A program made the translations under genes and the position numbers. Below, in pieces: positions 5,036 to 27,540 of a stretch of 64,000 nucleotides of DNA. Within the stretch, counting starts at the first letter, position 1. Every line of letters begins with the position of its first letter. Source of the DNA: Candidatus Magasanikiibacteriota bacterium (lineage in GTDB: Bacteria; Patescibacteriota; Patescibacteriia; Magasanikbacterales; UBA922); contig JBPOIO010000004.1 in the NCBI GenBank assembly GCA_052034405.1, forward strand, positions 751 to 64,750, written 5' to 3'. The notes beneath the pieces were generated by a model. That model saw only the letters and a list, made by a program, of their open reading frames with translations. It searched no databases and was not told where the DNA came from.

Positions 5036-5040
5036 TTTCT

Positions 5041-13112: not shown

Positions 13113-13184
13113 GCACTCGTCGTTCAATGGATAGGACGCTAGTTTGCGGAACTAGCAATCTAAGTTCGATTCTTAGCGAGTGCA
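13113..13184 (+). tRNA. tRNA-Arg, anticodon GCG (read from loop TTGCGGA)
   Basis: 72-nt cloverleaf folded by hand. The acceptor stem GCACTCG/CGAGTGC is perfect. The D-stem is GTTC/GGAC with GG in the loop. The anticodon stem CTAGT/ACTAG is perfect. The T-stem is CTAAG/CTTAG with a TTCGATT loop, and the discriminator is A. No CCA is encoded. Confidence 0.8.
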
Positions 13185-14669
13185 CACGTCGGGAAGTTGC
13201 GCCAAAGCGCGACTTACCTGGAACGGATACTTTGCTTCAACTAGCAGAGTTTTTTGTTTCAGCGCGAGGTTCGAGAAGAGGGTCTGGCAGACCTCGCGTT
13301 TCTTCTCGGGCTCGCCAGCTTCGAACTTTTTCTTCGCTAGAACTGCGAACGAAATCCCCTCCATCAAGGGTTCGATGAGTCCCGCGACTGGACTGGCTCG
13401 TTCCAGTTGCGCACGGAGCGCAATCTGCTCGCTTGTGAGGGCTCTGCGGTCCTCATCAAGCTCCTCGCCGGTAATGCGACCCTCAGCAGCTAGATGACGA
13501 AGGTTTCGGAGCTTCTCGTCGTTCTTCACCAGTTTCGCTTCGACCGTTTGGACGACCCTCGACTCCGAATCGCAGACCTCAGCGCGAACGCTCCTCAGCT
13601 CGTCCAGCACGGCCTCCGCTACGTCAGGCGGGAGAGTGAGATCGTTGATGCTCAACGCGAGTTGCTCTTCAAGTGACACTTGCTCGACGGACGGCTCGTC
13701 GCAGTAGAGATATGCACGACTCTTTCGGCAGCAATGGTAGTACGTGTAGCGGGTTCCGAATCGGTTGACCTTGTTCTCCGCAGTGACGACGGACGCACAA
13801 GAACCGCATCTCAATATGCCACGGTATGGAAACCGGTTCGTTTGTGGGCGCGGTTCAGATGCACCCAGGCGCTTGAACTGCTCCTGTACTTCCTCGAACT
13901 CGGCCCAGGAGACGGCGGCGGGATGCGTGCCGGGGAACGATCCCTCCTTCCGAACCATCAGCCCGGCATAGAACGGGTCGCGCAGTGTCCGGTACAACAA
14001 CGACTGGGAAATCAACTTCCCACCGTGGCTCCGCATCACCGGAGTCGTCAGGTGCCACTCCTTGCGGGCTCGGTTGAGGATATCGGACATTGGCACCCCC
14101 ATTCGCCGCAATCGAAACGCCTCTCGAATTAGAGGAAGTCGCACCGGATCAGCCAGGAGCTTCATTGTCGAACGGTCGCGGGTGTAGCCAATTTTCGGAG
14201 CACCAGGCCAAAGGCCCTGTAGCAGTGCCTGCTTGTTGCCACGACATATGTTCTTGCGGAGGTCATCAATGTCTTTCGTGGCCATCCCGAAGATGATGGA
14301 CATCATGAGCTTGTCGTCACCTGACCCAGTGAACGCCCGCTCGGGCGTGAGGATCTCCTTGATCGCTCCGGTGCCGAGCAGCCACATGATGGAGCCACCA
14401 TCGATGGGGTTCCTCGCCAGACGGTTGAGATGCCAGCACAAGACTGCGTCGGCTTTCTTCGCGTTGAGCATGGCCATGACTCTTGCGAACTCTGGCCGGC
14501 CTGGTTCCTTCGCAGACCGCGTTTCGCGGATCGGCTCCCCCACGATGAGAAGATTGCGGGCCTGAGCAAATGAGAGAAGCTCCCGCTCCTGGGCTGGTAT
14601 TGAGAGCTGCTGCTTCCCGTCGTCGAGCGTGGATTTCCGCACGTAGACTACGTATTTCAATGGGTTCAT
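13173..14669 (-). CDS. large serine recombinase (integrase) of the GC-rich island
   Basis: N-terminal resolvase catalytic motif YVRKST..QQLSIPAQ with the serine nucleophile. It also has a recombinase domain, a zinc ribbon (CGSCASV...YYHCC) and a coiled-coil. Its stop codon lies inside the tRNA T-stem. Confidence 0.9.
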   Translation of the reverse strand: MNPLKYVVYVRKSTLDDGKQQLSIPAQERELLSFAQARNLLIVGEPIRETRSAKEPGRPEFARVMAMLNAKKADAVLCWHLNRLARNPIDGGSIMWLLGTGAIKEILTPERAFTGSGDDKLMMSIIFGMATKDIDDLRKNICRGNKQALLQGLWPGAPKIGYTRDRSTMKLLADPVRLPLIREAFRLRRMGVPMSDILNRARKEWHLTTPVMRSHGGKLISQSLLYRTLRDPFYAGLMVRKEGSFPGTHPAAVSWAEFEEVQEQFKRLGASEPRPQTNRFPYRGILRCGSCASVVTAENKVNRFGTRYTYYHCCRKSRAYLYCDEPSVEQVSLEEQLALSINDLTLPPDVAEAVLDELRSVRAEVCDSESRVVQTVEAKLVKNDEKLRNLRHLAAEGRITGEELDEDRRALTSEQIALRAQLERASPVAGLIEPLMEGISFAVLAKKKFEAGEPEKKREVCQTLFSNLALKQKTLLVEAKYPFQVSRALAQLPDVCTR

Positions 14670-14685
14670 ATTGTTGTCAAGTTAG

Positions 14686-14892
14686 TTAGTCAAAGAGGAC
14701 CACGTAGAAAGCTGCCACGAGGTCCTTCGCTACGATTCTGAGCTCGGCCGGTGACAAATCCCGTGGATGGTGTGGGTCACTGCGAAGGGCTTCACCAAGC
14801 CGAATGAGGAAGGCGGCGCTGGGCTCGTAGTTGCCGAGACATGCTAACCTCATACGCTGTGATTTGTGGTCATTAGATGAGTGCATATGCAT
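14686..14892 (-). CDS. hypothetical small protein next to the integrase (possible excisionase/RDF-like accessory)
   Basis: 68-aa ORF immediately upstream of and co-oriented with the recombinase. No motif. The functional guess is by position only. Confidence 0.3.
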   Translation of the reverse strand: MHMHSSNDHKSQRMRLACLGNYEPSAAFLIRLGEALRSDPHHPRDLSPAELRIVAKDLVAAFYVVLFD

Positions 14893-14950
14893 TCATCGTA
14901 ACAACTCATTGCTTGGTCGTCCCGTCGCACCGTGATGCGAAAATGAACAA

Positions 14951-14980
14951 AAGAAGAACTCCACGACCGGAGTTCTTCTT
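14951..14980 (-). terminator. perfect 12-bp-stem hairpin (aagaagaactcc/ggagttcttctt), terminator-like on the minus strand
   Basis: Perfect inverted repeat with a 6-nt loop. On the minus strand it is followed by ttgttcatttt. It sits between the transfer-gene block and the integrase pair. Confidence 0.35.
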
Positions 14981-15242
14981 CATGCTTGTCATCTCTCTTC
15001 TTCTGCCCTGTGGATAGCGTGGTCAGAATCCGACCATCGTGCTACGGGACTACATCTTGCGGCTATGAGAAGATATACTATGTAAGCCGCGAAATCGGGC
15101 AAGACGAGAGTTTGAAAATGTCGTCACCCCAGTCTCGCGGAAATATGTGCCCTAGGCAGGCCATTCATCCCAACAAGAGAGGAGGTGACATTAGGTAGAC
15201 TACAACTTGTGCATATTCTGTCAAGTGTAGGTACCAATAGCT

Positions 15243-15944
15243 ATGACAAACAATGAATCAGAACAACGCGTGCTGAGCGAGAAATCGCTCGTGTTCAACG
15301 TGGAAGTTCTTCGCAAGAACTTCAGCAAGCACGTGGTCACGCAAGAAGACCTCGCCACCATGACCGGCGTGCCGAGGAGCGCGGCTGCGATGGAGTCCTC
15401 CCAACTGCCCGGCCGTGGTGTTCGCCGGAGTTCGTTCGTCATAGCGTGTCTGGTCAAGGTCAACGTGGGGTCGCCCTTGGGCCAGTCCGCCGGCTTCGCG
15501 TCGAAGCACCTCCTTCTCGTCCGTGGTTTCCCCGAGTCGGTTCGGGGCGGCCTTCGCCGCCTCAGATTCGGTTCGCGCGACCGGACACGACTCCGCGCTC
15601 AGCACCTGCGAGGCGTCGGGGGTCATCGTGGTGGTCGGTCGCGTCTTCACGAGCCCGACGCTACGCGCGGCGGATCGAGTGGTCGAGCGCGCGAAGGGTG
15701 CCGTGGTGTCTGCCCCTGGTGTGGCCCCCTGGTGCGAGCCCCCGGTCAGTCCGACACACCACCCCTCGGCTTCTCATCTTCTTGGAATCACTCGGTTTTC
15801 AAGGAACGCAAAACAAGGAATCAGCCCCTTCTTGGGGCATCTCGTTCATCCGGCGCACGGACGCGGACGACCGCGCCACTCTGCGCTTCCACCTCGCGTT
15901 CGCCAAGGTCCGCGAGCCGGTACCAGCCGCTCGTCAGCGCGTAG
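15243..15944 (+). CDS. XRE-family HTH regulator (N-terminal about 65 aa); the long Arg/Gly-rich C-terminal continuation is doubtful
   Basis: LRKNFSKHVVTQEDLATMTGVPRSAAAMES resembles an XRE HTH. The rest of the 233-aa frame is low-complexity, typical of open frames in GC-rich DNA, and overlaps the Replic_Relax gene on the opposite strand. Confidence 0.4.
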   Translation: MTNNESEQRVLSEKSLVFNVEVLRKNFSKHVVTQEDLATMTGVPRSAAAMESSQLPGRGVRRSSFVIACLVKVNVGSPLGQSAGFASKHLLLVRGFPESVRGGLRRLRFGSRDRTRLRAQHLRGVGGHRGGRSRLHEPDATRGGSSGRAREGCRGVCPWCGPLVRAPGQSDTPPLGFSSSWNHSVFKERKTRNQPLLGASRSSGARTRTTAPLCASTSRSPRSASRYQPLVSA

Positions 15945-16693
15945 TTCACCGGCTCGGCCTTCAGGTCGAGGACCCGGCCGAAGACCGGACCACCGATGTC
16001 CACCGCCTGGCGGCCCAGGGCGGCGAGCCGCTTCACCGATTTCGCCACGATGAGCATGCCGTCGGGGACCAGGCCCGCGATCTCCATGCGCGCGGCGTGC
16101 ATCCGGGCGAAGAAGGCGATCTTGTTCTCGGCCACGTACTGCGGCCCCTCGGTGCCCGTGTCGATCTCCACGACGAAGCTGCGCCGGCGCTCGGCGTCCT
16201 CGACCGTGAGGACCGCGTCGGGCCTGTACTTGAGGATGGTCGGGAGGTGGGCCTGGTCAAGCTCCCACTCGAACTGGTAGCGAACCAGGCGCACCCCTCG
16301 GGACAACTCGCACTCGGCCACGACCCGGCTCCAGAAGCGGACGTTCATCAGGTGGTGCTCGCCCGGACCCGAATACTCGGCCGGCGCGCTGCGGGGCCTC
16401 TCGTCGAGGCCGAGGTCCTCGAAGAGCGCGATCTGACCCTTGCGGTCGAGCACGTACCGCGTCTCTTCGTGCAGCGCGTTGCAGTACCCGGCCAGGTACC
16501 CGGTATCCATGAGCTTCTTGAGTCGCCGGCGGGCCATCGCCACGGACGGGAAGTAGAGCGGCACGACGTCGGACACGGTGAGCACCTTGGCCTTTCGGAG
16601 GGCCTCGAAGAGCGCGAGGTCGCGCTCCTGGAGATCAGCCGCGCGTCCGGCGCGGCCGTTCCCCGATTGCCTGCCGAGTCCACGTCCCGCCAT
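15821..16693 (-). CDS. replication-relaxation family protein (Replic_Relax-like)
   Basis: N-terminal wHTH-like LQERDLALFEALRKAKVLTVSDVVPLYF...ARRRLKKLMDTGYL, then a conserved core (EWELD, YRPDAVL, FVVEIDTGTE) as in plasmid/ICE replication-relaxation proteins. Confidence 0.55.
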   Translation of the reverse strand: MAGRGLGRQSGNGRAGRAADLQERDLALFEALRKAKVLTVSDVVPLYFPSVAMARRRLKKLMDTGYLAGYCNALHEETRYVLDRKGQIALFEDLGLDERPRSAPAEYSGPGEHHLMNVRFWSRVVAECELSRGVRLVRYQFEWELDQAHLPTILKYRPDAVLTVEDAERRRSFVVEIDTGTEGPQYVAENKIAFFARMHAARMEIAGLVPDGMLIVAKSVKRLAALGRQAVDIGGPVFGRVLDLKAEPVNYALTSGWYRLADLGEREVEAQSGAVVRVRAPDERDAPRRG

Positions 16694-16705
16694 GAGTGTG
16701 AGCCG

Positions 16706-17026
16706 CTACACCTTCGGGTTGACGATGGACACCCCGCAGGTGTGGCAGTTGACGTAGGCGGGCGCGGTCTTGCAGGCCGGGCAGGCCGACCACACCCAGC
16801 CGTCGCGCGTGGCGCCGCAGGTCGAGCACTCCCAGAGCCCGTCCGCCGGTTGGGGCGGGCAGCCCCGCTTGCACTTCAACTCGCGCTTGACCACGGCCAT
16901 GCCGACCTTCCCGGTCTTGTAGGTCCACTTGCCAAAGGAGATCAGCTTGAAGAGCGCGGCCAGCGAGAAGACCACGGCCGCGTACATGAGCTGAAACGGC
17001 GCCAGAATCCAGCGAAGTTCATCCAT
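16706..17026 (-). CDS. small membrane protein with C-terminal Cys-rich zinc-ribbon-like domain
   Basis: It has one TM helix followed by CxxC...CxxC...CxxC spacing (CSTCG, CPAC, CHTCG). Confidence 0.4.
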   Translation of the reverse strand: MDELRWILAPFQLMYAAVVFSLAALFKLISFGKWTYKTGKVGMAVVKRELKCKRGCPPQPADGLWECSTCGATRDGWVWSACPACKTAPAYVNCHTCGVSIVNPKV

Positions 17027-17050
17027 GCCTTGCCCTCTTTCGAGTTGTTT

Positions 17051-19075
17051 CTATCCGATGAACGGCCCTCTTCGCGTCCGGTTGCCCTTGGGGCTCTGGC
17101 CTTCGTGGCCCTTCTCCTCCTTTCCCGTAGCCCGTTGCCCATCGCCCAGGGGGACTGGCGGCGGAGCCGTTTGGCCGCCAGGTTCGCGTTTGGGTTGCTG
17201 CTCGTCTGGCCGAGGCGCAGCCTCGACCTCCTCTTGTCGCCCCTCAGATTCCTTCGCTGGCCGCGGCCTCACCTTGCCCGGAGGTGGCCGCTGCGGATTG
17301 CGCCGATCAGGCTTCGAGCCTGGCTCCCTGACCTCGTGGGGCACCCGGTCGCGCAGATCGCGCCTCGGGTCGCGAGCGAAGCCGCCCGCCACTTCCTTGA
17401 TGTGGTGCTTGCGCTTCTCGATGGCCTCGTTGAGGACGTGCGCTGGCGTGCCGCAGCCGTACCCACGGCACAGGGCGCGCAGCTCGTCGGAGGCCCGGTC
17501 AGCGGCCCGGCGCAGATCGTCGAACGGGACCTCGGGCGCAATGAGCCGTGCTGCCGGCCGCCCCAGCGCCCGCGGGTAGAACCAAAAGTGGCGCTTCGGC
17601 AGACGAATCAGCTCTTCGACGTGGCGCGCTCGCTGCTCGCTGGGGCGCTCGACGCGGGTCTCGTAGCGTGGGCCGTCGAGATCTCGCCGAACGCGGCAGT
17701 GCTCCGAGACCGGGAACATGTGGGAGAAGCGCCGGGCATCGCTCGGCGACTGCTGGAACACGGTCTGGTAGCCGCAGGAGTTCTCGATGGTCGCGAGCAG
17801 CGCCGAGCTGCGGCTCGCCACCTGCGCCGGCAACTGGTTGATGAGCCAGAGCGCCACGTTCTTGTGCCGGGCTAGGGTGAGCAGGCTCTCGAAGTCGCCG
17901 GCCAGGTCCGCGTCGAGACCCAGCCACCACTCGTCGATGGCCGCGATCACGGGCCGGCGGGTATCACGTCGGGAGTAGATGGCCCGGGCAAGCCCACGCA
18001 CGAAGACCGAGATCCAGAACCGGGTCAGGAACTCGGCGCCGCGCGGAGCCCCGCCCAGGTTGACCACGGTGAGCGGCCCTTCAAGTAGGGAGGCATAGGA
18101 CACGCACCCTGGGGCGCAGAGCACGCGCGCCGTATCCTCGAAGAGCAGCAGGTCGAGCCGGGCCACCACGGCCTGCACCGACTCGGTCGGCTCCTGCGGG
18201 AACCGGTGGGTGAAGTACTCGCGGATCTCATAGTCCTCGACTTCCCTGAGGAGGCCGTTCAGGTACCGGTCGTTGATGAGCGCCGAGCGCAACTCGAGGA
18301 TGGACAACCCGCCGACCGAAAGCATGAGGCGCAGGGCGTTGAGGAGAATCCCCATCATCCGGACGCCCCAGTCACCCCCGGCCCCGCCGAGGGCCTCCCC
18401 GATGAGGTTGGCGATCTCCTTGGCGTGAAGCGAGCGCGAGATGCCGCCGACGGGAGCAAGCAGGTTCATTTCCGGGAGGTTGCTTTCGTCGAAGGGCGCG
18501 ACGACGTTCAGGCCACGAATGACCTCGATGATGTCGTCTTCTTCAGCGTCTCGGAGCATGGCCGGGAGGAGCAGATCGGTGATCCACTCGGCGCTCTCGC
18601 CCTTGGCGTCCACGTGCAAGAGGGACCACGGCATGCCCGGCCCGATGAGCTGCATCTCCTCGGCGAAGGTCTGCGCGCTCTTGCCCCGGCCCGTGGCCCC
18701 GACGATCCAGCGGTGGACGCCGTACAACTCCGAGACCGGTACGGCGACCGGGATGTCCTCGGCCTCGGCCAGGGTGCCCACGAGGACGCGAACACCATCC
18801 TCACCGGCCCGCTCGTCGAGATCGTTCAGAAGGTGGACTTCAGGCGGCGGGTCGAGGCTCTCAAAGTGGTGCTCGATGGCCGCCTCGACCAGCTTGCGCT
18901 TGGAGCCCACGAAGAGCCGCCGAAGGCCGGCTTCGAGCAGGCTCACGAGAGGATCCGCGTTTGCTGGAGAAAGAGGCGCATGACGACGCTTGCTCCTGGT
19001 TGCCGAGCCCCTGCCCGGGCCACGAAGCAAAGCGTAGGACGATTTCCGGGATCCGCAACTTTTTTTCTGAAGCAC
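17051..19075 (-). CDS. FtsK/TraD/VirD4-like P-loop ATPase (type IV coupling-protein-like) with Arg/Pro-rich C-terminal tail
   Basis: Walker A is GATGRGKS and Walker B is VIAAIDEWW. A WLINQLPAQ motif resembles the T4CP Q-motif. The TraM-recognition-like C-region is low-complexity. Confidence 0.5.
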   Translation of the reverse strand: MLQKKSCGSRKSSYALLRGPGRGSATRSKRRHAPLSPANADPLVSLLEAGLRRLFVGSKRKLVEAAIEHHFESLDPPPEVHLLNDLDERAGEDGVRVLVGTLAEAEDIPVAVPVSELYGVHRWIVGATGRGKSAQTFAEEMQLIGPGMPWSLLHVDAKGESAEWITDLLLPAMLRDAEEDDIIEVIRGLNVVAPFDESNLPEMNLLAPVGGISRSLHAKEIANLIGEALGGAGGDWGVRMMGILLNALRLMLSVGGLSILELRSALINDRYLNGLLREVEDYEIREYFTHRFPQEPTESVQAVVARLDLLLFEDTARVLCAPGCVSYASLLEGPLTVVNLGGAPRGAEFLTRFWISVFVRGLARAIYSRRDTRRPVIAAIDEWWLGLDADLAGDFESLLTLARHKNVALWLINQLPAQVASRSSALLATIENSCGYQTVFQQSPSDARRFSHMFPVSEHCRVRRDLDGPRYETRVERPSEQRARHVEELIRLPKRHFWFYPRALGRPAARLIAPEVPFDDLRRAADRASDELRALCRGYGCGTPAHVLNEAIEKRKHHIKEVAGGFARDPRRDLRDRVPHEVREPGSKPDRRNPQRPPPGKVRPRPAKESEGRQEEVEAAPRPDEQQPKREPGGQTAPPPVPLGDGQRATGKEEKGHEGQSPKGNRTRRGPFIG

Positions 19076-19116
19076 GCGCCAGGAGGAATGTGAGGCTGCG
19101 GGGACGGACGCCGGAA

Positions 19117-20121
19117 CTACGAGAGAAGAGCAAGAACGCCTTCGAGTTCGCTCCGGAGTGCCTTCTTCTCGGCGTCCGACAGCTCCTTGGCGTTGAACTT
19201 GACGGGGCGCAAGCGCACGTCACCGATCTTCAGGTTGGTGCCGTCCGAGCGGAAGATGCTCGGGAGCGACTTCTTCTCCGATGCGCCCCGGAACGCCTCA
19301 TTGACGTGCCGAACGATCTGCGGGATGGAGAGTTCCTCGTTGTTGATGCGCGTGACCCACTCGATGTAGTGGAGCTTCGGGTACCTAGCCTTGAGCTTCT
19401 TCAGGGTCAGGGCATGGGTCGCCTTGAAGGTGGTCCCTTCCTCCCCGATGGCCGTCTGCACCTCAGCCGGCAGGTCGAGGAGCGCCAAGAGGTTGTTCTT
19501 CTGGCGCTTGGTGAGGTTCATGAGCTCAGCGACCTCGAAGCTCTTGTACCCCGAGTCCTGGTACCGCTTGATCACGTAGGCCCGGTCGATGTCCGAGTAG
19601 GTCTTGCGGGCCATGTTCTCGAGGACCGAGGCCCGGAACGCCTCCTGGTCGTCCACCAGGTCCCGGCGAACGTAGGCGGAGATGAAATCCGCCTTCAGCT
19701 CAGTGAGTGCCGTAGCCCGACGGAAGCCCGAGACGAGCTGCCACTTGAACCCGTCCTCGGGGCGCGGGTGAGGACGAACGACGGCCGGGATCTGCTGACC
19801 ACTCTCGCGGATGCTCTTGACGAGGTCGGCCACCCGCACGACCGCTCGGAAGCGGTACGTCACGTCGCCGAGGTCGATTTCGCTGAGCGGGACCTGACGA
19901 ACCACCAAGTCGTTGTCGAGGACCGTGGGGACGTCCACTGGGACCCGGCTCGCACCAGGCGGACGACCGCGGCGCTTCGCCGCAGATGGAGCGGCCTCGG
20001 TTGTGGGAGCGGGGGGCGTCGGCTCGGGTGTGGAGGTTTCCATGACCCTACTAGACGGAGCCTTCGCGGCGACTTTGCGATCTTTTTTCAACTGGCTCGG
20101 TTTTGGTGCGGGTCGGGGCAT
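19117..20121 (-). CDS. ParB/Sulfiredoxin-domain protein (ParB-like partition/nuclease)
   Basis: N-terminal ParB motif (LSEIDLGDVTYRFR ... VSGFRRATAL) followed by HTH-like and C-terminal helical regions. The N-terminus is Pro/Ala-rich. Confidence 0.65.
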   Translation of the reverse strand: MPRPAPKPSQLKKDRKVAAKAPSSRVMETSTPEPTPPAPTTEAAPSAAKRRGRPPGASRVPVDVPTVLDNDLVVRQVPLSEIDLGDVTYRFRAVVRVADLVKSIRESGQQIPAVVRPHPRPEDGFKWQLVSGFRRATALTELKADFISAYVRRDLVDDQEAFRASVLENMARKTYSDIDRAYVIKRYQDSGYKSFEVAELMNLTKRQKNNLLALLDLPAEVQTAIGEEGTTFKATHALTLKKLKARYPKLHYIEWVTRINNEELSIPQIVRHVNEAFRGASEKKSLPSIFRSDGTNLKIGDVRLRPVKFNAKELSDAEKKALRSELEGVLALLS

Positions 20122-20182
20122 GATTATCTCCGCAGGTGATTGTGGAGAAGGTCATACGCCGACGAACAAGTGGCCGCAAGGT

Positions 20183-20198
20183 GGGAAATCGATTTCCC
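20183..20198. promoter_or_regulatory. perfect 16-bp palindrome GGGAAATCGATTTCCC in the divergent promoter region (candidate operator)
   Basis: Perfect palindrome between the divergent parB-like gene and the plus-strand operon. A near-identical copy is at 25386–25401. Confidence 0.4.
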
Positions 20199-20297
20199 GG
20201 GGCTTACCGGTTCCGCGACGCTTGACGGTTGGTCATCAGGCTGCTAACCATCCCGACAAGCTATGAAATCCAGCACAATAACTTGTAACAACACGGT

Positions 20298-20999
20298 GTG
20301 GAGCGCCTGTTGAGTGATCGTGAGTACGACTCGACAACGGAGGTCACAAGCGAGATCATTCAGCTAGCTGAAGCCGAATCGTTGGAAGAAGCCGTCGCAA
20401 AGTTGAACATGCTTCCGCTTACCGGCACCTCGAAAATTGCACTCAAGATGCTGTCCCCGTGGACCCGCGGCGGTGCCGAGACGTACGTGACAACATTTGA
20501 TATCACGGCGGGGGCGGAGTGTGCTCCTTGCATTCTAAAGGCCTGTGTGGCGTTCGCCATCACGCCTGGCGGAGTAGAAGCAATTCTGGAGTCGTGGATC
20601 GCCCGTAGACGGTTACTTGCGGCCCATGGAGCAGCGGTCCCGCGGCTCTATGCATACGGCCGCGGGGTCGTTCTCGAGGAACGACTTCCTTACAGAGCGC
20701 AGGACTTGATCGCTGCCAAATCTGCGACACGCCCCGCTGTATTAGCAAGCCTTTTCAAGTTGACCCGCGCCTTGGAGCAGGTACGATTCCAGCCCGTATC
20801 AATACTCCCTGATGTCATGTCGGACGGAGAACGGGCCGTTCTGGTGGATTTCGGCCAGGATCTTGGAGACCCGATGCCTGCCGAAACCGACGTAGACACC
20901 TACGCCCGCACGGTCGCCTCGCTCACACAACTCGGAATAAATCTCAGCCCCGAAGAGCAGGAACTTACACTTGCCGTGCATAACGGCCACGTACACTAG
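20298..20999 (+). CDS. hypothetical protein, first gene of the island operon (weak protein-kinase-like features)
   Basis: 233-aa ORF. Weak resemblance to kinase motifs (CILKAC as a possible beta3 Lys, VLVDFGQD as a possible DFG). Speculative. Its stop overlaps the next gene. Confidence 0.35.
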   Translation: MERLLSDREYDSTTEVTSEIIQLAEAESLEEAVAKLNMLPLTGTSKIALKMLSPWTRGGAETYVTTFDITAGAECAPCILKACVAFAITPGGVEAILESWIARRRLLAAHGAAVPRLYAYGRGVVLEERLPYRAQDLIAAKSATRPAVLASLFKLTRALEQVRFQPVSILPDVMSDGERAVLVDFGQDLGDPMPAETDVDTYARTVASLTQLGINLSPEEQELTLAVHNGHVH

Positions 21000-22005
21000 G
21001 ACCAGAATGAAAATTCGTGACGCAGTCGAAGCAGCGCATTCCGTGAACGACGGGGCAACCGTAGTTGCCCCCCTAGATCTCGGCGGGAACGAGCAGAACC
21101 AGCTTCTGATGTTCCTGAAACCGGAGACCTTCCTGAGCAACGATAGGGAAACGCCAGCAACGGTGGCCGATCTTGCTGACCGCCTCATCAACTCGTTCCG
21201 ACTGCGGATGTCTGGGATCATCGGAGTGTCCGGGCCGACGCTCGGGTCACTCCGTGCAATGGACAAGCACTACGGCTTCATCAACAAGATGTCACGGGCT
21301 GCATCCGTCTCGCTGGATGCCAAAACGCTTGAAGGTCTTCGGTCCCGGTATGCCACTGGACCGGATGGCGCGGTTCTGGGTGGCCACGAGTTCCTTGAGC
21401 GTCATCAGGACTGGGATGCCCAGAAGCTGGACACGCTGTGGGCGACGAAGAAGAGCGACCGAATTCGAAGTGGCCTGTATGCTCAGCTCTACGACATTCC
21501 CGGCACTGGACCGACCATCCTGCTCAACGGCTTTCATCCTGCACAACTTGAACACTTCACTGCGCCAGGTCGAAAGGTCATCCTGATCGTGCTGAACAGC
21601 GACCTGCCCTGGTCTGTTCTGCGACGACGGATGCTCGGTGACACCTTCCCGGAGAAGGCGGTTGCGGGCTCGTTCAGGCGCGCACTCTACGACACCCGAG
21701 AGAAGTTGGGCTTGCCGGACGTCTCAATCGCCAACAATTTCGCGCATCTCTCGGCTGGACCATTCGAAGCTGCGTTTGAACTGAACAACTTCCTCGGATC
21801 TGTCTGCCCAGACCAGTTCACAATTGCGAACAGCCGATTGTGGAAGCACGGCCTGCGAATCGGGTTGACCAACGACCAGTTGGCTGGGTCACTCAACAAT
21901 CCGCCCGTGGAGGTCGCTGGAACGCGGCTTCCGCTCTTCGACGCTACCGAAGATTGTGACTCGCTGACCTCTCTTCAGCTGCTGGCATCGCACGGCGCGG
22001 GCTGA
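20971..22005 (+). CDS. nucleoside-diphosphate-kinase-like protein with an approximately 70-aa insertion (start probably at Met 21007)
   Basis: By-eye alignment to Ndk. LMFLKPETF matches IIKPNAV. FHPAQLEHFTAPGRKVILIVL matches FF.GLVEFMTSGPIVV.VL. RRRMLGDTFPEKAVAGSFRRALYD matches LLGATNPA.ALAGTLRADYA. NNFAHLSAGPFEAAFEL matches NGTHGSDSVESAAREI, with the catalytic His retained. Confidence 0.5.
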   Translation: MPCITATYTRTRMKIRDAVEAAHSVNDGATVVAPLDLGGNEQNQLLMFLKPETFLSNDRETPATVADLADRLINSFRLRMSGIIGVSGPTLGSLRAMDKHYGFINKMSRAASVSLDAKTLEGLRSRYATGPDGAVLGGHEFLERHQDWDAQKLDTLWATKKSDRIRSGLYAQLYDIPGTGPTILLNGFHPAQLEHFTAPGRKVILIVLNSDLPWSVLRRRMLGDTFPEKAVAGSFRRALYDTREKLGLPDVSIANNFAHLSAGPFEAAFELNNFLGSVCPDQFTIANSRLWKHGLRIGLTNDQLAGSLNNPPVEVAGTRLPLFDATEDCDSLTSLQLLASHGAG

Positions 22006-22018
22006 ATCGAGGCGACCT

Positions 22019-22873
22019 ATGGCGTCAAGTGCACCACGCGGCTGGCTCGGAAAAACGGCTGGCGTATTTAGCCTACACGAGTCTGACCGTACGTGCGGAT
22101 CGTATATTTCTATCCGAGACGCTGCCACGATTCTAAAGGTCGACCCTGCCGAACTCGACCACTACCGGCTCGCACAGCACGGCGAGCAAGATTTCACGAC
22201 AGACAAGACGCTTGGTCGCGCATGGGCTTCTGGCCAGATCACGAGTCCTCGCACATCCATGCGGCGCGGAAATTCCATGGTAAGTTTCGACGAACTCATC
22301 GTGCTCACTCTCATTGAGTTGACCTTGCCTGGTGCAGCCGTTCATCCGCAAAAAGAGGTTGATAGGTTCCTGATAGACTTTCTCGTGGAACACAATGGCG
22401 TAACAATTGCGCTTGAGTTTTGCGGACCGCACCACTTCATTCGACGACACCCAGGAGAGCGCACGCCCCTGGACCCGCGTGTTCGCGCTGAGCGCATTTC
22501 GCGGCTGCTGAACGTCGAGTGCGTTATCTGGCCGTATTGGGTCCAACGATGTGAGTCAAACGTCCGAGCCCTTTTTGATTCCTCAGTGCGCGGAATCGCC
22601 AGCGTTTGGTCAACAAGCGCCCAGTTCGGCAACTTTTCATTTCCTGACTCTCACAAAGTGATTCAGGACATCAACGCGCGCTTTCGAGTGGAACGGGAAA
22701 CTGGCATCGGGTACATGTACACTGACGAAATCGTGAGCAAGCCAGTGCACCCCGTGGTCTCCCAGATTAGACGGGGACGGGAGTCCGTTTCAAAACTCGT
22801 CCCGCCCGGTTCCACATCGTCGAAGCGATACTGGGTTCCACGGGTGCTTTGGTCCGTAATCGACGGTGGCTAG
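22019..22873 (+). CDS. DUF559/Vsr-like restriction-endonuclease-fold protein
   Basis: DRFLIDFLVEHNGVTIALEFCGPHHF followed by DPRVRAERISRLLNVECVIWPYW matches the DUF559 pattern (DF..x..L.iE.DG..H ... D..R...L...G..V.R). The usual Asp is replaced by Cys (EFCG). Confidence 0.45.
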   Translation: MASSAPRGWLGKTAGVFSLHESDRTCGSYISIRDAATILKVDPAELDHYRLAQHGEQDFTTDKTLGRAWASGQITSPRTSMRRGNSMVSFDELIVLTLIELTLPGAAVHPQKEVDRFLIDFLVEHNGVTIALEFCGPHHFIRRHPGERTPLDPRVRAERISRLLNVECVIWPYWVQRCESNVRALFDSSVRGIASVWSTSAQFGNFSFPDSHKVIQDINARFRVERETGIGYMYTDEIVSKPVHPVVSQIRRGRESVSKLVPPGSTSSKRYWVPRVLWSVIDGG

Positions 22874-24641
22874 CATGACTGACGACTTTCACGTCGACGC
22901 CGGCCTAATTCAAGCAGCGCAGGCGCTGGCGCGCATCATGCGAGAGCAGGAGTTCTGCCTCTACCTAACCGGGCTCGCCGCGTCAGGGAAGACCGCCGCA
23001 GCAGAAATCATTTCGCGGATGACGGGTGTGCCCGTTGTTGACTCCGGCCTGGTATTCCGACTCGCTGCCTATCTTTGCGTACATGTTCCTGTCGCAGCAG
23101 AGAATCCGGGCGTGCTCGCCCGCCTCTTGGGTGAGCACACAATCAAGGTCGTGAACGGGCAATATCGAATTCTGTCTGGTGACTCGGACATTACGGAGAG
23201 ACTTCAGGCGCCAGATGTCGGCTCTCAGGCGACTGCAACGGCCGCGGAACCTAGACTTCGAGAAGTGATTCTTACCTTTCTAAGATCTAGGACGAAGGCG
23301 CCAGCCATCGTGGCTGCACGCGGCGTTACTGAACCACTCACAACAGGAAACTTCGTTCAGATAGAATTGCGAGCAGACCTAGAGGTTCGCGCGGCTCGGC
23401 GCGCTAAGCAAAGTGGTTCGCCAGTTGCTACGATTCGAAAGAGCATACGAGCTCGAGACGACCGCGACCAACGCGGCCCGTCACGGTATCCAAGCGCTGA
23501 CTTTGTTGACAGTTCGAAACTGACCCTTCATGAGACCGTAGCCCGAGTTGTTGAAAGAACGACCGCGCGGATTTCTCGCCTTCTGAGCATCTCTGAATTT
23601 AGGAAAGTTGAGTTCAACAACGCTGAACAGCTGAGCAACCCCTTGCTTGTACGTCTCTGGGCCGAAGCACAGGCAGGACTTGAGGAGGAAGAAAGCACAC
23701 AGGGCATCCCGAAGGGGCACGCGAAAGCACGTTTTCTCCTCAATCTCTCGCGTTACTCGTCGCTGGATCTACTGGGACTGTCGCATTCATGGATGCCTGG
23801 GGCTCTGCCGGGACTTGTGGACACAGCCGCTGCTGTCCCCGCAAACGACTTGCTGATGCGCGAGTGTGCTAGAACGGTGGAAGAGCGGGCCAAGTCGATT
23901 CGGCGATTCATGGAAGCGACACGCTTTCCGAGTGCTATTTTTGATGAAAGATCCCTTCGGCTTGAGCTTGTTCGAGGGCGACCAGTGGGGACCTCGGAAG
24001 GTGGAGAGGTGGTAGAACACTATCACCTCCGTGACACGTCCCCAGAAGTCGGCATGTGGCTCGAAAACAATCTTCACTACTTAGGTGCAGCACGCCTCGA
24101 CACCACTCATAGAGTCGCGCTTGTAGAAGCGTCGAGTGAATTTCCTGTCCTGTACTTGTCATTCGCTCCAAACACTCGCAAGTACATGGAGCCGCTCCTG
24201 TGGCGAGTCGGACTCAGGTTAGAGGAGGTTGCTGTCGCAGTACGTGGCTACGGAACGCCCCGTTGTCCTCGGAATGCGATGGCATGGTTCCTTCGTGAGG
24301 CATGTGCTCGGGTCAAGCAAGACTTTCCACATCTCCGTGCCGTTGTCACAGACATCAACCCCAACTGGGGCTTCAGCGGATCGTCCTTTCAGGAGGCCGG
24401 ATTTGTCACGTTGGGAATGAAGTACGCTCCCACAAGCTTTGTCGCGGGCGATTATTCCCCGCGACGGAGCCTCGAGCGCCAACCCGGAAGCCGCGCGGCA
24501 GTTGGGAACAGACTGCCGCTGGTTCCAACGTTGGTCATGATTAGGCCATTTCCCAAGGAATCCATTCTTCGAACACGTATTGCAGAGTCGGTGGTTGATG
24601 GTGTATACTTGATACCTCGGGACTTGTATGAAGAAAAATAG
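22866..24641 (+). CDS. cytidylate-kinase-like P-loop kinase fused to a C-terminal GNAT-like acetyltransferase domain
   Basis: N-terminal about 235 aa align by eye to Cmk: LYLTGLAASGKTAAAEIISRMTGVPVVDSGLVFRLAA versus ITIDGPSGAGKGT...LLDSGAIYRVLA; LSGDSDITERLQAPDVGSQATATAAEPRLRE; IRARDDRDQRGPSRYP versus IKERDDRDRNRAVAPL. The C-terminus has a GNAT-like motif A (VRGYGTP) and NPNWGFSGSSFQEAGF. Confidence 0.55.
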   Translation: MASMTDDFHVDAGLIQAAQALARIMREQEFCLYLTGLAASGKTAAAEIISRMTGVPVVDSGLVFRLAAYLCVHVPVAAENPGVLARLLGEHTIKVVNGQYRILSGDSDITERLQAPDVGSQATATAAEPRLREVILTFLRSRTKAPAIVAARGVTEPLTTGNFVQIELRADLEVRAARRAKQSGSPVATIRKSIRARDDRDQRGPSRYPSADFVDSSKLTLHETVARVVERTTARISRLLSISEFRKVEFNNAEQLSNPLLVRLWAEAQAGLEEEESTQGIPKGHAKARFLLNLSRYSSLDLLGLSHSWMPGALPGLVDTAAAVPANDLLMRECARTVEERAKSIRRFMEATRFPSAIFDERSLRLELVRGRPVGTSEGGEVVEHYHLRDTSPEVGMWLENNLHYLGAARLDTTHRVALVEASSEFPVLYLSFAPNTRKYMEPLLWRVGLRLEEVAVAVRGYGTPRCPRNAMAWFLREACARVKQDFPHLRAVVTDINPNWGFSGSSFQEAGFVTLGMKYAPTSFVAGDYSPRRSLERQPGSRAAVGNRLPLVPTLVMIRPFPKESILRTRIAESVVDGVYLIPRDLYEEK

Positions 24642-24644
24642 CCT

Positions 24645-25217
24645 ATGAGAATCCTTGTAGCCACCCGCAACAGGGACAAATTCAATATCGTCAAGCGCCT
24701 GGTAGAAGCAACTGTGCCGGACGCACATCTTGTTTTTCTCGGCGACACTCCGATCAGCGGAGACGTTGTTGAAGCAGGGTCAATCCACGAACGCGCCCGG
24801 CAAAAGGCAGTGTACTTTTGGGGGCGCTTGGAGTGGTCTACAATAGCCGACGACTTCGATTCAGTGCTGGCGGTGGACGACGGGCTGAGCGTCGGCGGCG
24901 CGGAAGCCACGCCTCACTCCAAAGAGATGACAGAACGAATACTCAGTGAGGCGTGGCCAACGGGAACTAAGGTGGATGTCGTTCGCGCGTTTTGCCTGAT
25001 AAGGCGTGGGGAAGTGCCGCGTGTGGAACTCACGGCGATCCCGTTTGTATTTGTAGGCAATCCACATGGCGTCCAACGTGAAGACGGTACGTATCCGTTG
25101 AGCCAGGTCCTTAGCCCCGAGGGAATGGCTCAACCAGTGTCTCAACTCACAAACGATGAAGAAGATGCATTCTACCTTCGCCACTCTCGGGAGCCGCTCG
25201 TTGCGCTGTTCTCATAG
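24645..25217 (+). CDS. Ham1/ITPase-like (RdgB-family) non-canonical NTP pyrophosphatase-like protein
   Basis: MRILVATRNRDKFNIVKRLV versus MKIVFATGNKGK; TIADDFDSVLAVDDGLSVGGAEAT versus AIADDSGLAVDVLGGAPG. It starts 4 nt after the upstream stop. Confidence 0.5.
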   Translation: MRILVATRNRDKFNIVKRLVEATVPDAHLVFLGDTPISGDVVEAGSIHERARQKAVYFWGRLEWSTIADDFDSVLAVDDGLSVGGAEATPHSKEMTERILSEAWPTGTKVDVVRAFCLIRRGEVPRVELTAIPFVFVGNPHGVQREDGTYPLSQVLSPEGMAQPVSQLTNDEEDAFYLRHSREPLVALFS

Positions 25218-25260
25218 TGATCGGCACCCCAAATCATGGACATTGGCAATCAAGTAATTG

Positions 25261-25297
25261 CTCGACCAGGGTCCTGACTTCTATCCTCGCTGTGCAC
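25261..25297 (+). repeat. 37-bp direct repeat copy 1 (CTCGACCAGGGTCCTGACTTCTATCCTCGCTGTGCAC), candidate att/junction site
   Basis: 33 of 37 positions are identical to 27494–27530. Weaker similarity extends about 14 nt upstream. It contains a GTGCAC core. Confidence 0.6.
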
Positions 25298-25385
25298 TAA
25301 CCGTGAGCATGTCGAACTGAGCATGCTCTAACGAAACATCGCGTAATTGCGATGTTTTCATTTTCTAAGCAGTCGTTCGAGCACG

Positions 25386-25401
25386 CGGGAAATCGACTTC
25401 C
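25386..25401. promoter_or_regulatory. second copy of the GGGAAATCGAyTTCCC palindrome (one mismatch) upstream of the PD-(D/E)xK gene
   Basis: GGGAAATCGACTTCCC, about 57 nt upstream of the ATG at 25458. It is adjacent to the palindrome GAGCATGCTC at 25311–25340. Confidence 0.35.
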
Positions 25402-25457
25402 CAGCAATTCGAACAGGGCTTGTTGGCCTTTCTCTGATATGGTAACATTTAACTAAT

Positions 25458-26291
25458 ATGTTGAAATCACACATGGCTGCCCGCGAGGGCGTACTGCTTG
25501 CCAGCAGTAAGGTCGCAGCAAATACAGGGCATTCGCTTCATAAGGGAACGCCTCGCGAGATCTTTATCCGCGAGTTCCTGGAAAGCCATCTCGCCGAGAC
25601 CGTCGCGATCGGCACTGGCGAAGTGATCGACTCAGAATCGATGCCGAATCCGCCACCGACAAGACAGCGCAATCAGTACGACATCATCATTTACAAGAAG
25701 AATTATCCAAAACTCGCCATCGGCGGTGGGATCTCGGCGTTTCTTTGCGAGTCGGTTGTAGCGACAATCGAAGTGAAATCCACTCTCACTAAGGATGAGC
25801 TACAATCGAGTGCAAGAGCCGCGCGAGCTGCGAAGCTACTCAAACCCAGTAGAGTCGAGGCTTTCAGGACAGGCTACCACCCGCCGTCGATCTTGAACTA
25901 CGTCGTGGCATATGACGGACCTGCATCAATGAAGACTGTGGCCGGTTGGCTACAGGATGCTGACGCGTACGCTGGAGTGCCAGGGCATCCGGATCTAAGT
26001 GGTGCCGACAGAACTCAGAAGGCGAGCCCGAGCCTCGATGGCGTGTTCGTGATGGGCAAAGGGTTCATGTTGTACGGCAATTCACCACTTTCTATTCTTT
26101 CGGTGGACGACCGCAAACGTGCGTCGAACCTCAAATGGGAATTCGCTGACTGCGAAGTTGGAAGTCTGTTCTTGCTATTCGTAACGTTGAGCCAAGTCGT
26201 GAGTGGGCACTCTGCGACCTGGCTCGACGCTGGGCCATACCTCAGCGGATTCTCTGTCCAAAATGATTCAATTGGCATGGTCGGCTGGTAG
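25458..26291 (+). CDS. PD-(D/E)xK nuclease-fold hypothetical protein
   Basis: DIIIYKK ... ESVVATIEVKST gives the D...(E)xK arrangement typical of restriction-endonuclease-like folds. No closer family recognised. Confidence 0.4.
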   Translation: MLKSHMAAREGVLLASSKVAANTGHSLHKGTPREIFIREFLESHLAETVAIGTGEVIDSESMPNPPPTRQRNQYDIIIYKKNYPKLAIGGGISAFLCESVVATIEVKSTLTKDELQSSARAARAAKLLKPSRVEAFRTGYHPPSILNYVVAYDGPASMKTVAGWLQDADAYAGVPGHPDLSGADRTQKASPSLDGVFVMGKGFMLYGNSPLSILSVDDRKRASNLKWEFADCEVGSLFLLFVTLSQVVSGHSATWLDAGPYLSGFSVQNDSIGMVGW

Positions 26292-27380
26292 TACCAAGCT
26301 CGGTTGCAGGTTATTACTGAGCTGTATGCGGAGCACTAGTTCGTCAAGTCGCATCTTCTCTTCAAGCGCGTCCATCTGTTCTGATGGCACCCCAGTTGCG
26401 CTTCTAAGCTGTGATCGAACCATCGTCTCTAGTTTCTCCGCGTCAGTGCTGAATCGACAGCCCGTTCGATGGCACCGATAATAGCGATAGACTCGTCCAT
26501 TTCTCTTCATGTGTTGTTCGCCGACAAGGAATCCCAAACAATTTGGACAAGTGACCTTTCGAGCGAGTAGGAAGTGCAAGTGCTTCCGAGGCTGCCCGCC
26601 GCTGTGCTTCTGCCGAAAGACTTCCTGGCTTCGGTCGAATATCTCCTTGGTGATCAATGATGGATGAGTACCGGTGTACTCAACACCCACGACGACCATC
26701 TTCCCCATGTAGAATGAGTTGTGGAGGATCGCACAGACCTTTGCTGCACTGACTTTCTTGCCGTGCCGGCTGACGAGGCCAGCACGGTGCAGTTCGTCAG
26801 CAAGCTGAGCGCTTCCGACTTGACCAGTGGCCCAGCGCTCGAAAGCCATCTTTATGAATCTTGCTCGGGCAGGGTCAACGACGACTTTGCCGTGCTCCTT
26901 GAGATACCCAAGAGGAGGAAGTCCACACCATCCTCCACGAAGGAGCTTCTCTTCGATCCCCCTCTTGACTTGTTGCGCCAGGTTGGCGCTGTAGAATTCT
27001 GCTTGTGCTGACATAATACGTTCAATGAATTGACCAACTGGAGTTTCTTCGCAGTTCTCCACGGCCGAAACGATTCGAACACCGTGGCGACGGAGCCGCT
27101 CCTTGATGGTCAGATAAGTAAACATGTCGCGTGCCAGTCGGTCGAGACGGTGAACGAAGAAGATGTTCACGTCGCGACTGCGACACGCAACGTCGAGTCC
27201 AGAGAGAAGGCCTGTTCGTCCACGGAATGATGTGCCACTCGCCACGTCCGTGAACGTCCCCGCAGCAACCCAACCTCGCTCAGAACAAAGTCGTCGAAGC
27301 GTGCGCAGTTGTGCTGGAATTGAAAGATCCTTCTCCCCTTGCTTGCTCGTTGAAACGCGAGCGTAGAGTATGACTGACAT
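26268..27380 (-). CDS. serine recombinase (resolvase/integrase family, 370 aa) of the sub-element
   Basis: It has the YARVSTSKQ catalytic motif, a recombinase domain and a zinc ribbon (CPNC...YRCHRTGC). Confidence 0.85.
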   Translation of the reverse strand: MSVILYARVSTSKQGEKDLSIPAQLRTLRRLCSERGWVAAGTFTDVASGTSFRGRTGLLSGLDVACRSRDVNIFFVHRLDRLARDMFTYLTIKERLRRHGVRIVSAVENCEETPVGQFIERIMSAQAEFYSANLAQQVKRGIEEKLLRGGWCGLPPLGYLKEHGKVVVDPARARFIKMAFERWATGQVGSAQLADELHRAGLVSRHGKKVSAAKVCAILHNSFYMGKMVVVGVEYTGTHPSLITKEIFDRSQEVFRQKHSGGQPRKHLHFLLARKVTCPNCLGFLVGEQHMKRNGRVYRYYRCHRTGCRFSTDAEKLETMVRSQLRSATGVPSEQMDALEEKMRLDELVLRIQLSNNLQPSLVLPADHAN

Positions 27381-27493
27381 ATGATGTTGAGTTAATGACT
27401 ACACTCTTCATCATACACCTTTGATGGTACAGCGTGATGTTCATACTGTCCCGTAGCACCGTGATTCGTTTCTGAACATCCAGTCAACATCTT

Positions 27494-27530
27494 CTCGACC
27501 AGGGTTCTGACTTCTCTTCTCGCGGTGCAC
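27494..27530 (+). repeat. 37-bp direct repeat copy 2 (CTCGACCAGGGTTCTGACTTCTCTTCTCGCGGTGCAC) at the island/host junction
   Basis: It is followed immediately by AT-rich host sequence. GTGCACAC is shared with the tRNA 3' end. Confidence 0.6.
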
Positions 27531-27540
27531 ACATAAAAAA

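Follow-up and report, generated by a model that had tools for sequence, protein, structure and literature searches.

Phage T4 reaches hydroxymethyl-deoxycytidine through the dCTPase gp56, the dCMP hydroxymethylase gp42, the deoxynucleoside monophosphate (dNMP) kinase gp1 and the nucleoside-diphosphate kinase (NDK) of its host. At prokaryotic viperin (pVip) loci, a nucleotide-modifying enzyme is co-encoded with nucleoside monophosphate (NMP) kinases and a modified nucleoside triphosphate (NTP) is delivered. In the Dcm-Vsr and M.MthTI-Mig pairs, a cytosine methyltransferase has as its genetic partner a T/G mismatch endonuclease (Vsr) or an HhH-GPD glycosylase (Mig), and the GNAT enzymes TmcA and NAT10 acylate the exocyclic (N4) amine of cytosine in RNA. 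The Mom protein of phage Mu was, to our knowledge, the sole enzyme of its kind for decades, and its tRNA-dependent chemistry was reportedly solved only in 2026. Here we analyse a 64,000-nucleotide stretch of a Candidatus Magasanikiibacteriota genome (contig JBPOIO010000004.1, positions 751 to 64,750; hereafter the window), in which five plus-strand genes form a mobile cassette whose fourth member joins a cytidylate kinase (CMK) to a predicted Mom-like domain.

Mom acylates the exocyclic amine of adenine, transferring glycine from Gly-tRNA to the adenine N6 amine (PMC13219725). An insertion resembling a helix-turn-helix (HTH) is required for DNA modification by Mom, and mutational data identify H58, Y59, R111, S124, D149, R151 and Y159 as essential in the Mu protein. 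The Kongming defence system comprises the KomA deaminase, the HAM1 protein KomB and the SIR2 protein KomC; its signal is dITP, and in KomB the catalytic Asp has become His. We compared the cassette of the window with these systems and with related metagenomic loci (sister cassettes), and consider it quite probable that the five genes form a conserved module handling a modified pyrimidine nucleotide.

The kinase-Mom fusion and its partner proteins

The N-terminal half of gene 4 matches the Pfam cytidylate kinase family PF02224 over residues 36-231 (E 4.4e-22; 79.3 bits against a cut-off of 26) and CMKs in the PDB (E 4e-17), bearing out the cytidylate kinase assignment of an initial annotation made from the sequence alone. 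Against the TIGR00017 equivalog model it scores 61 bits (cut-off 135.55). By sequence, it is best described as a CMK-family domain and not as the housekeeping enzyme. The P-loop (G36-K42), S/T60, F64, R65, R132 and R152 are invariant or conservatively exchanged, and include the equivalents of E. coli Ser36, Tyr40 (Phe here, with the aromatic character retained), Arg41, Arg110 and Arg131. At the Asp position of the GRD motif, nearly all members have Gly (Gly153; ARG for GRD). In bacterial CMKs this Asp (Asp132 in E. coli numbering) hydrogen-bonds cytosine together with Arg110 (PMC3603445). Because the equivalent of this cytosine-reading residue is a glycine, the base pocket of the gene 4 kinase is predicted to be widened or altered.

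The C-terminal domain of gene 4 had no Pfam match and no sequence-profile match in the PDB, and its likeness to Mom emerged only from structure prediction. An AlphaFold2 model based on 12 homologues (predicted local distance difference test (pLDDT) score of 88; predicted template modelling (pTM) score of 0.87) had phage Mu Mom (8bv8) as its top Foldseek match in the PDB (E 6e-9, target TM-score 0.68). The next matches were generic GNATs at E 4e-5 or weaker, including the cytidine N4-acetyltransferases TmcA and NAT10/Kre33. The GNAT fold given in the initial annotation is supported by this model, and the generic acyltransferase assignment can be sharpened to the Mom family. An exhaustive profile search with the domain returned 372 representative relatives. 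Among 89 relatives examined, 51 matched the Pfam Mom family PF25680, to which the gene 4 protein of the window gave no match at E<=1. A CMK domain was also present in 16 of the 89, so the kinase-Mom fusion is a recurrent architecture.

In the alignment to Mu Mom, gene 4 keeps His58, Tyr59, Arg111 and the P-x-N motif (as H404, Y405, R460, P468 and N470). At the site of Mom's HTH-like insertion, the gene 4 model has a shorter, mostly coil segment of lower confidence, which is not predicted to form an HTH and which contains the invariant residues R533 and R534. As modelled, the domain resembles Mom without being its orthologue, and its substrate is probably smaller. A small substrate fits the replacement of the HTH-like insertion by a shorter coil segment, and the fusion to an NMP kinase suggests that this substrate is a nucleotide. 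By analogy, the target of the domain may be the N4 of cytosine.

Gene 5 belongs with the Ham1/ITPase-like proteins at the superfamily level, as initially annotated. The window protein matched the Pfam Ham1 family PF01725 at E 0.013 (15.8 bits, under the cut-off of 22.5) and an NCBIfam model at E 7e-5. A profile of 17 family members found the dITP/XTP pyrophosphatase 6wwd (E 1.4e-5); of the 17, 12 matched PF01725 at E<=0.01 (best 9e-6). The ITPase catalytic and phosphate-binding set (N9, K12, E43, K54, D78 and D79) is invariant across both clades, the cassette and the distant one described below. Since this set is invariant and the Asp pair is kept, gene 5 looks enzymatically active. Aligned to E. 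coli RdgB, gene 5 apparently has Ser in place of the S-H-R motif's purine-reading Arg; the hhalign match of the gene 5 profile to RdgB was weak (E 0.17), covering the C-terminal part only, in a consistent register.

Gene 2 encodes a diverged NDK-like protein, as first proposed, with weak scores against family models: E 0.2 for the window protein against the NCBIfam model and E 0.06-0.11 for its orthologues against Pfam PF00334. A gene 2 profile found five matches in the PDB, all of them NDKs (E 0.7-1.7). Some sister cassettes encode a canonical NDK of 179 aa (PF00334 E 5e-37), and hhalign aligned gene 2 to it at E 4e-5 (probability 70%) with His247 placed on the catalytic His, which in NDKs lies in an N-x-x-H-x-S motif. 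Depending on the cassette, the same slot is taken by the canonical NDK or by the diverged 332-aa form. Gene 2 also has a K-P-E motif at residues 38-40.

Gene 3 is the most conserved cassette protein, with a mean column identity of 73% in an alignment of six cassette orthologues. In its structure model (pLDDT 90), an Xis/MerR-like HTH at the N terminus precedes a restriction-endonuclease-like core, and a conserved extension forms the C terminus. The core has weak Vsr/DUF559-like matches, the fold named in its first description as nuclease-like; its catalytic pattern is taken up below. A second clade of gene 3 homologues was found outside the cassette. In locus L019 (2754-16779), an SNF2 helicase and an MmeI/Eco57I-type methyltransferase flank the gene 3 paralogue P0179 (43% identity). 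Next come a 677-aa protein and a large helicase, and GmrSD and an HTH protein lie upstream. By gene content, this operon resembles DISARM class 1 with an extra component. Gene 3 would accordingly be a DNA-directed module, since its paralogue lies in a DISARM-like operon.

Gene 1 has 28 homologues among 5.8 billion proteins and an orthologue in every complete cassette. K81, E127-E128 and the motif D184-x-G186-x-D188-L-G are invariant, and F185 and D172 nearly so. The 27 members searched matched no family in Pfam (kinase models included), NCBIfam or PADLOC. Its earlier description as weakly kinase-like was not borne out: matches to WbdD and Rio2 obtained with a six-sequence profile (E 0.02-0.8, WbdD/Rio2 at E 0.02 being the best) vanished with a 27-sequence profile, and a DFG-like motif is all that remains of this candidate assignment.

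All five reading frames of the initial annotation are present (Table 1), gene 4 as a whole spanning 22866-24641 and the longest frame of gene 2 spanning 20971-22005. The altered motifs singled out there were found at residues 133-136 of gene 3 (EFCG) and residues 7-9 of gene 5 (TRN). Gene 2 most likely starts at ATG 21007 rather than at TTG 20971, because an AGGA lies 6 nt upstream and four identical metagenome contigs carry the 332-aa call. Gene 4 may start at ATG 22875, giving 588 aa. With the revised starts, the intergenic gaps from gene 1 to gene 5 are 7, 13, 1 and 3 nt. Of the overlapping or near-abutting starts and stops described initially, the tight packing therefore stands and the overlaps do not, since the revised starts leave gaps of 1-13 nt. 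The terminator-like hairpin is a consensus match only, such sites being no more numerous in the region than in shuffles, and promoter-like sites in the region were no more frequent than in shuffled sequence. A search with Rfam detected no riboswitch, a tRNA being the sole match.

Table 1. Features of the cassette and its carrier element, in window coordinates
Feature	Position	Strand	Description
Gene 1	20298-20999	+	233 aa; conserved cassette member
Gene 2	21007-22005	+	332 aa; diverged NDK-like; longest reading frame from TTG 20971
Gene 3	22019-22873	+	284 aa; Xis/MerR-like HTH, Vsr/DUF559-type core, C-terminal extension
Gene 4, N-terminal domain	22866-23570	+	Cytidylate (CMP/dCMP) kinase; predicted altered base pocket
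Gene 4, C-terminal domain	23571-24641	+	Predicted Mom-family GNAT after helical linker
Gene 5	24645-25217	+	190 aa; Ham1/ITPase-superfamily nucleoside-triphosphate pyrophosphatase-like
Terminator-like hairpin	25333-25358	+	11-bp stem and T-rich tail, 3' of gene 5
Gene 6	25458-26291		NucC-like PD-DExK nuclease; DUF6602 E 3.5e-22; PADLOC PD_DExK E 7e-25, NucC E 7e-8
Serine recombinase	26268-27380	-	370 aa; adjoins NucC-like gene
Direct repeat, first copy	25261-25297		37 nt
Direct repeat, second copy	27494-27530		37 nt; 89% identical to first copy
tRNA-Arg	13113-13185		Insertion site of carrier element
Carrier element	13176-27532		14.35 kb; integrated at tRNA-Arg 3' end

Linkage, mobility and a distant relative of the cassette

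The genes are co-localised in about ten distinct metagenomic loci, at 42-63% protein identity and in four arrangements: 1-2-3-4-5 (the window, L001/2, L003-5/9 and L006), 3-4-5 followed by convergent 2-1 (L007/L014 and L015), 4-5-1-NDK (L018) and 3-4-5 alone (L016). All of these loci lie on integrative or conjugative backbones, which differ from one another in having a tyrosine integrase beside a lysin, a relaxase and coupling protein, ParB and ArdC, a CBASS neighbour or a TIR-AAA neighbour. The G+C content of the cassette is 2-18 points under that of its flanks in each measurable locus (L001, L003, L006, L014, L015 and L016), and by this measure the cassette behaves as cargo foreign even to its carrier elements. 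Because the linkage persists through rearrangement and exchange of backbone, gene order provides strong evidence that the five genes are one functional module, horizontally mobile as cargo. The operon-like module on a mobile element posited in the initial annotation is thus matched by synteny conserved in four arrangements, and the neighbourhoods of the CMK-GNAT fusion revealed co-localisation at about ten loci rather than scattered housekeeping genes that never occur together.

The cassette is rare, amounting to a few tens of sequences among billions of proteins. At least 13 of 5.8 billion clustered proteins are closely related to gene 4 (ordinary CMKs crowded the candidate list), and JGI metagenomes added three more. 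There were none in a set of one genome per GTDB species and none in IMG/VR. In tblastn searches of phage and plasmid collections, the sole matches were housekeeping cmk genes and no record contained the fusion.

The carrier element of the window is integrated at a tRNA-Arg gene, and both of its ends share a GTGCACAC core. In contig L010, from an independent sequencing run, window position 27532 is fused directly to position 13176 with an 11-bp overlap. This junction demonstrates the excised circle of a 14.35-kb integrative element and, with the shared core and the tRNA-Arg insertion site, confirms the mobile island of the initial annotation. According to Pfam annotation, the element encodes a 498-aa serine recombinase beside the tRNA-Arg gene, a Replic_Relax relaxase, a HerA/TraG-like ATPase and ParB; it also carries the five-gene cassette, the DUF6602/NucC-like nuclease gene and a second serine recombinase gene (370 aa). 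The G+C content is 53-69% across the element (about 13.2-27.5 kb) compared to about 39% in the host, indicating recent acquisition from a donor of high G+C content. Some gene 1 homologues come from Pseudonocardiaceae metagenome-assembled genomes. Judged from the list of reading frames, long opposite-strand frames in the high-G+C stretch (e.g., 15446-17875) are likely artefacts of base composition.

The initial annotation reported no known effector. This holds for the conserved set, in which there is no SIR2, TIR or viperin; however, a NucC-like PD-DExK nuclease gene (gene 6) 240 nt downstream had been overlooked. We considered gene 6 as the missing effector and rejected it: it is absent from all sister cassettes and, together with its own serine recombinase, is enclosed by a pair of 37-nt direct repeats. 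Since the second of these overlaps the right attachment core of the carrier element, the interval 25261-27530 has the look of a small mobile module, either nested or in tandem.

More remote kinase-Mom fusions were located in 15 species genomes, with 26-57% mutual identity and about 30% or less to gene 4. In 12 of the 15, from uncultured Clostridia, Lachnospiraceae, Bacilli, Dojkabacteria and other Patescibacteria, a homologue of gene 5 (E 1e-27 to 1e-43 against the gene 5 profile) comes next after the fusion and an HhH-GPD DNA glycosylase gene after that, the genes usually overlapping (examples among loci L022-L033 are L024 5881-9129 and L030 3583-7920). Both Dojkabacteria loci (L030 and L031) have a PfkB-family kinase gene after the glycosylase, and in L030 a queuosine-salvage gene (PF10343) lies upstream. 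Two Clostridia have a tyrosine recombinase gene just upstream, and some trios occupy ordinary chromosomal neighbourhoods (rpsF-ssb-rpsR/dnaB, nrdD). The distant trio seems to form a separate, uncharacterised operon.

Genes 4 and 5 are the deepest conserved pair, usually overlapping or abutting, and across the sampled loci the kinase-Mom fusion with the Ham1-like gene can be regarded as the deep invariant core. The third constant, by homology, is a DNA-acting partner, either the HhH-GPD glycosylase of the distant clade or the Vsr-like gene 3 of the cassette. The extra kinases are lineage-specific (the NDK and gene 1 in the cassette, PfkB in Dojkabacteria).

Several other features were noted around these loci. 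Beside sister cassettes are a CBASS pair (CD-NTase and Cap15; L015 11216-12749), a TIR_2 and AAA/LDcluster4 pair (L006 541-2407) and an RHS/YD-shell toxin with DUF6843 (L003 1557-7294), which are typical variable or defence-island neighbourhoods. Frameshifts or splits affect genes 2 and 3 in L006 (8123-9990), gene 4 in L016 (10001-11882) and the fusion in L033 (5881-7747), and reflect either decay or long-read assembly errors. A 437-aa protein on the host side of the window (5011-6324) has a T4SS-pilin-like segment and a Peptidase_M15_4 domain, a family also found beside the cassette in L001.

A candidate pathway and competing explanations

Starting from the observed domain identities, conserved linkage and mobility, we propose a route through the nucleotide pool by which a cytidine triphosphate with a modified base would be made for use in DNA. 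The Ham1-like pyrophosphatase of gene 5 would convert a cytidine-type (d)NTP to its monophosphate, and the Mom-family half of gene 4 would then acylate or aminoacylate the free nucleotide at its exocyclic N4 amine. The fused CMP kinase, with its predicted wider pocket, would phosphorylate the modified monophosphate, and the NDK-like gene 2 would finish the triphosphate. This four-step arrangement employs each assigned activity once. A polymerase would use the modified triphosphate, marking the DNA, and gene 3, as a DNA-binding nuclease-fold protein, would be a repair or discrimination partner comparable to Vsr for Dcm or Mig for M.MthTI. Gene 1 might contribute an extra phosphotransfer step. 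DNA is suggested as the destination because a DNA-acting partner is constantly present.

The complete route is a tentative proposal to which we give somewhat less than an even chance, and in it we infer the substrate, the order of the steps, the acyl donor and the destination. A more specific version is doubtful, though worth stating: a Mom-type GNAT, perhaps with an aminoacyl-tRNA as donor, would act on a free cytidine nucleotide that the kinases raise to the triphosphate for incorporation into DNA, yielding a new cytosine hypermodification that has its own partner of the Vsr-like or HhH-GPD type.

Several observations weigh against the proposed route. Four residues essential in Mu Mom are changed in gene 4: Ser124 is Ala473 (Gly in other members), Asp149 is Asn498, Arg151 is Asn500 and Tyr159 is Phe508. 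Because of these changes, the mechanism of the GNAT domain must differ from that of Mom, or else the domain may be a binding module. The catalytic pattern of gene 3 is incomplete: the canonical PD-(D/E)xK triad is absent, and its fold matches are weak. Gene 1 lacks a function supported by profile search. The family, including the distant-clade fusions and stand-alone Mom-like proteins, is essentially absent from phages and viral contigs, unlike known pre-replicative hypermodification pathways. Modification at the level of the pool would also mark the host chromosome and RNA. Lastly, the PfkB and queuosine-salvage neighbours of the distant trio could instead indicate salvage of a modified nucleoside.

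The carriage of the cassette on mobile elements, at 2-18 points of G+C under its flanks, would also fit an antiviral or signalling nucleotide of the pVip-like or Kongming-like kind, in which a base-modified NTP, made by the kinase cascade and the Mom-like GNAT, poisons phage polymerases or signals alarm, while protection of the host, or the part of effector, falls to the Ham1-like enzyme and to the nuclease or glycosylase. This explanation, which we rate as rather unlikely, is favoured by the neighbours of the cassettes (CBASS in L015, TIR-AAA in L006, the RHS toxin in L003 and the NucC-like nuclease in the window), by the service of Ham1-family proteins in Kongming defence and by the gene 3 paralogues in a DISARM-like operon. 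However, the NucC-like gene does not recur in any sister cassette, none of genes 1-5 has a PADLOC match, and the conserved set contains neither SIR2, TIR nor viperin nor any other recognised effector. Gene 5 also keeps the catalytic Asp pair where the KomB sensors of Kongming have His, and some distant trios have ordinary chromosomal surroundings.

Improbable, in our judgement, is direct modification of a polymer in the manner of Mom and TmcA, whereby the GNAT acts post-replicatively on DNA, or on tRNA or other RNA, while the CMK, NDK and Ham1-like proteins supply or regulate nucleotides or the donor. The nearest solved structure is that of a DNA-modifying enzyme, the fold matches include TmcA and NAT10 (each an NTPase module with a GNAT for N4 acetylation of RNA cytidine), R533 and R534 are invariant in the segment that replaces Mom's DNA-binding insertion, and the partner proteins act on DNA. 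Yet the HTH-like insertion essential to Mom is not predicted as such in gene 4, a full NMP-to-NTP kinase set with an NTP pyrophosphatase is hard to explain on these terms, and the change in the base pocket suggests that the kinase handles the modified nucleotide itself.

Patescibacteria rely on nucleotide salvage, and Ham1 enzymes are classic house-cleaning enzymes. With the PfkB-family kinase in two Dojkabacteria and the PF10343 gene near the L030 operon, these points favour a salvage or house-cleaning role, in which a non-canonical cytidine derivative, taken up from the turnover of RNA or DNA, is recycled or detoxified by the kinases and the pyrophosphatase, and the glycosylase-like or nuclease-like partner takes out the base or deals with its mis-incorporation. 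We consider this slightly more improbable still, as the cassette is very rare, carriage by mobile elements is unusual for salvage, the GNAT transferase fold is built to add groups and not to remove them, and gene 3 has a DNA-binding HTH. A chance juxtaposition of diverged housekeeping genes of nucleotide metabolism, without joint function, is barely conceivable: the cmk, ndk and rdgB families all have housekeeping members and the phage and plasmid collections held ordinary cmk alone, but the conserved synteny already contradicts it, with linkage through four gene orders at 42-63% identity, a recurring CMK-Mom fusion, gaps of 1-13 nt and mobile backbones throughout.

Were the nucleotide-pool route correct, no relative of Mom before gene 4 would have acted on pool nucleotides, and the cassette would be the first pre-replicative hypermodification pathway outside phages. 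A cellular, kinase-fused branch of Mom, widespread but rare and set within a complete NMP-to-NTP cascade, would extend Mom chemistry from DNA to the pool, and two uncharacterised operons (the five-gene cassette and the kinase-Mom/Ham1-like/HhH-GPD trio) would gain a function. The outcome could be a new modified base in the DNA of bacteria or mobile elements, or else a new nucleotide with an antiviral or signalling role. New modified nucleotides, together with enzymes able to make, tolerate or remove them, are useful for sequencing, for restriction-resistant vectors and for the synthesis of nucleotide analogues.

Comparison with described systems

The initial annotation did not recognise this combination of genes as a described system, and our searches of PADLOC, PHROGs, phage and plasmid collections and the literature agree with it. 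Genes 1-5 had no match in PADLOC-DB v2 and no informative PHROG, the PADLOC match being restricted to the neighbouring gene 6. Searches of open-access papers and bioRxiv preprints turned up no account of the cassette, the CMK-Mom fusion or the distant trio, and the homologues taken from viromes in the 2026 Mom paper were single-domain proteins only. We class the cassette as an undescribed system, conservatively of a putative nucleotide-pool base-modification kind, with a realistic chance that it is something more distant.

Two described systems were considered as possible homes for the cassette and rejected. Like the cassette, Kongming employs nucleotide kinases alongside a Ham1-family protein, and its nucleotide is base-modified, as is predicted for the cassette. 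However, the cassette encodes its own kinases whereas Kongming borrows those of the phage, and it has no deaminase or SIR2 domain, while gene 5 retains its Asp-Asp pair. The pVip loci also pair a nucleotide-modifying enzyme, predicted in the case of the cassette, with NMP kinases. The cassette has no radical-SAM viperin, its chemistry would be different and it has no PADLOC match.

TmcA and NAT10, both among the fold matches of gene 4, likewise join a P-loop NTPase domain to a GNAT. In gene 4 the P-loop domain is an NMP kinase and not a helicase-type ATPase, there is no tRNA-binding domain, and the GNAT resembles Mom more closely than it does TmcA. The best structural match remains Mu Mom (8bv8; PF25680), with which gene 4 has the equivalents of H58, Y59, R111 and the P-x-N motif in common. 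Unlike Mom, the gene 4 domain is fused to a CMP kinase and encoded by cells and mobile elements rather than phages, and it is without Ser124, Asp149, Arg151, Tyr159 and the HTH-like DNA-binding insertion.

The coupling of a presumed cytosine-directed modifier to a Vsr-fold protein in the cassette, or to an HhH-GPD glycosylase in the distant clade, parallels the Dcm-Vsr and M.MthTI-Mig pairs. The enzymes of the T4 pathway are of other families (dUTPase/MazG-type, thymidylate-synthase-like and T4-type dNMP kinase, where the cassette has Ham1, GNAT and CMK), and the cassette travels on integrative or conjugative elements and not in a phage. By analogy, the logic proposed for the cassette is nonetheless that of T4: an NTP pyrophosphatase followed by an NMP-modifying enzyme, an NMP kinase and an NDK.

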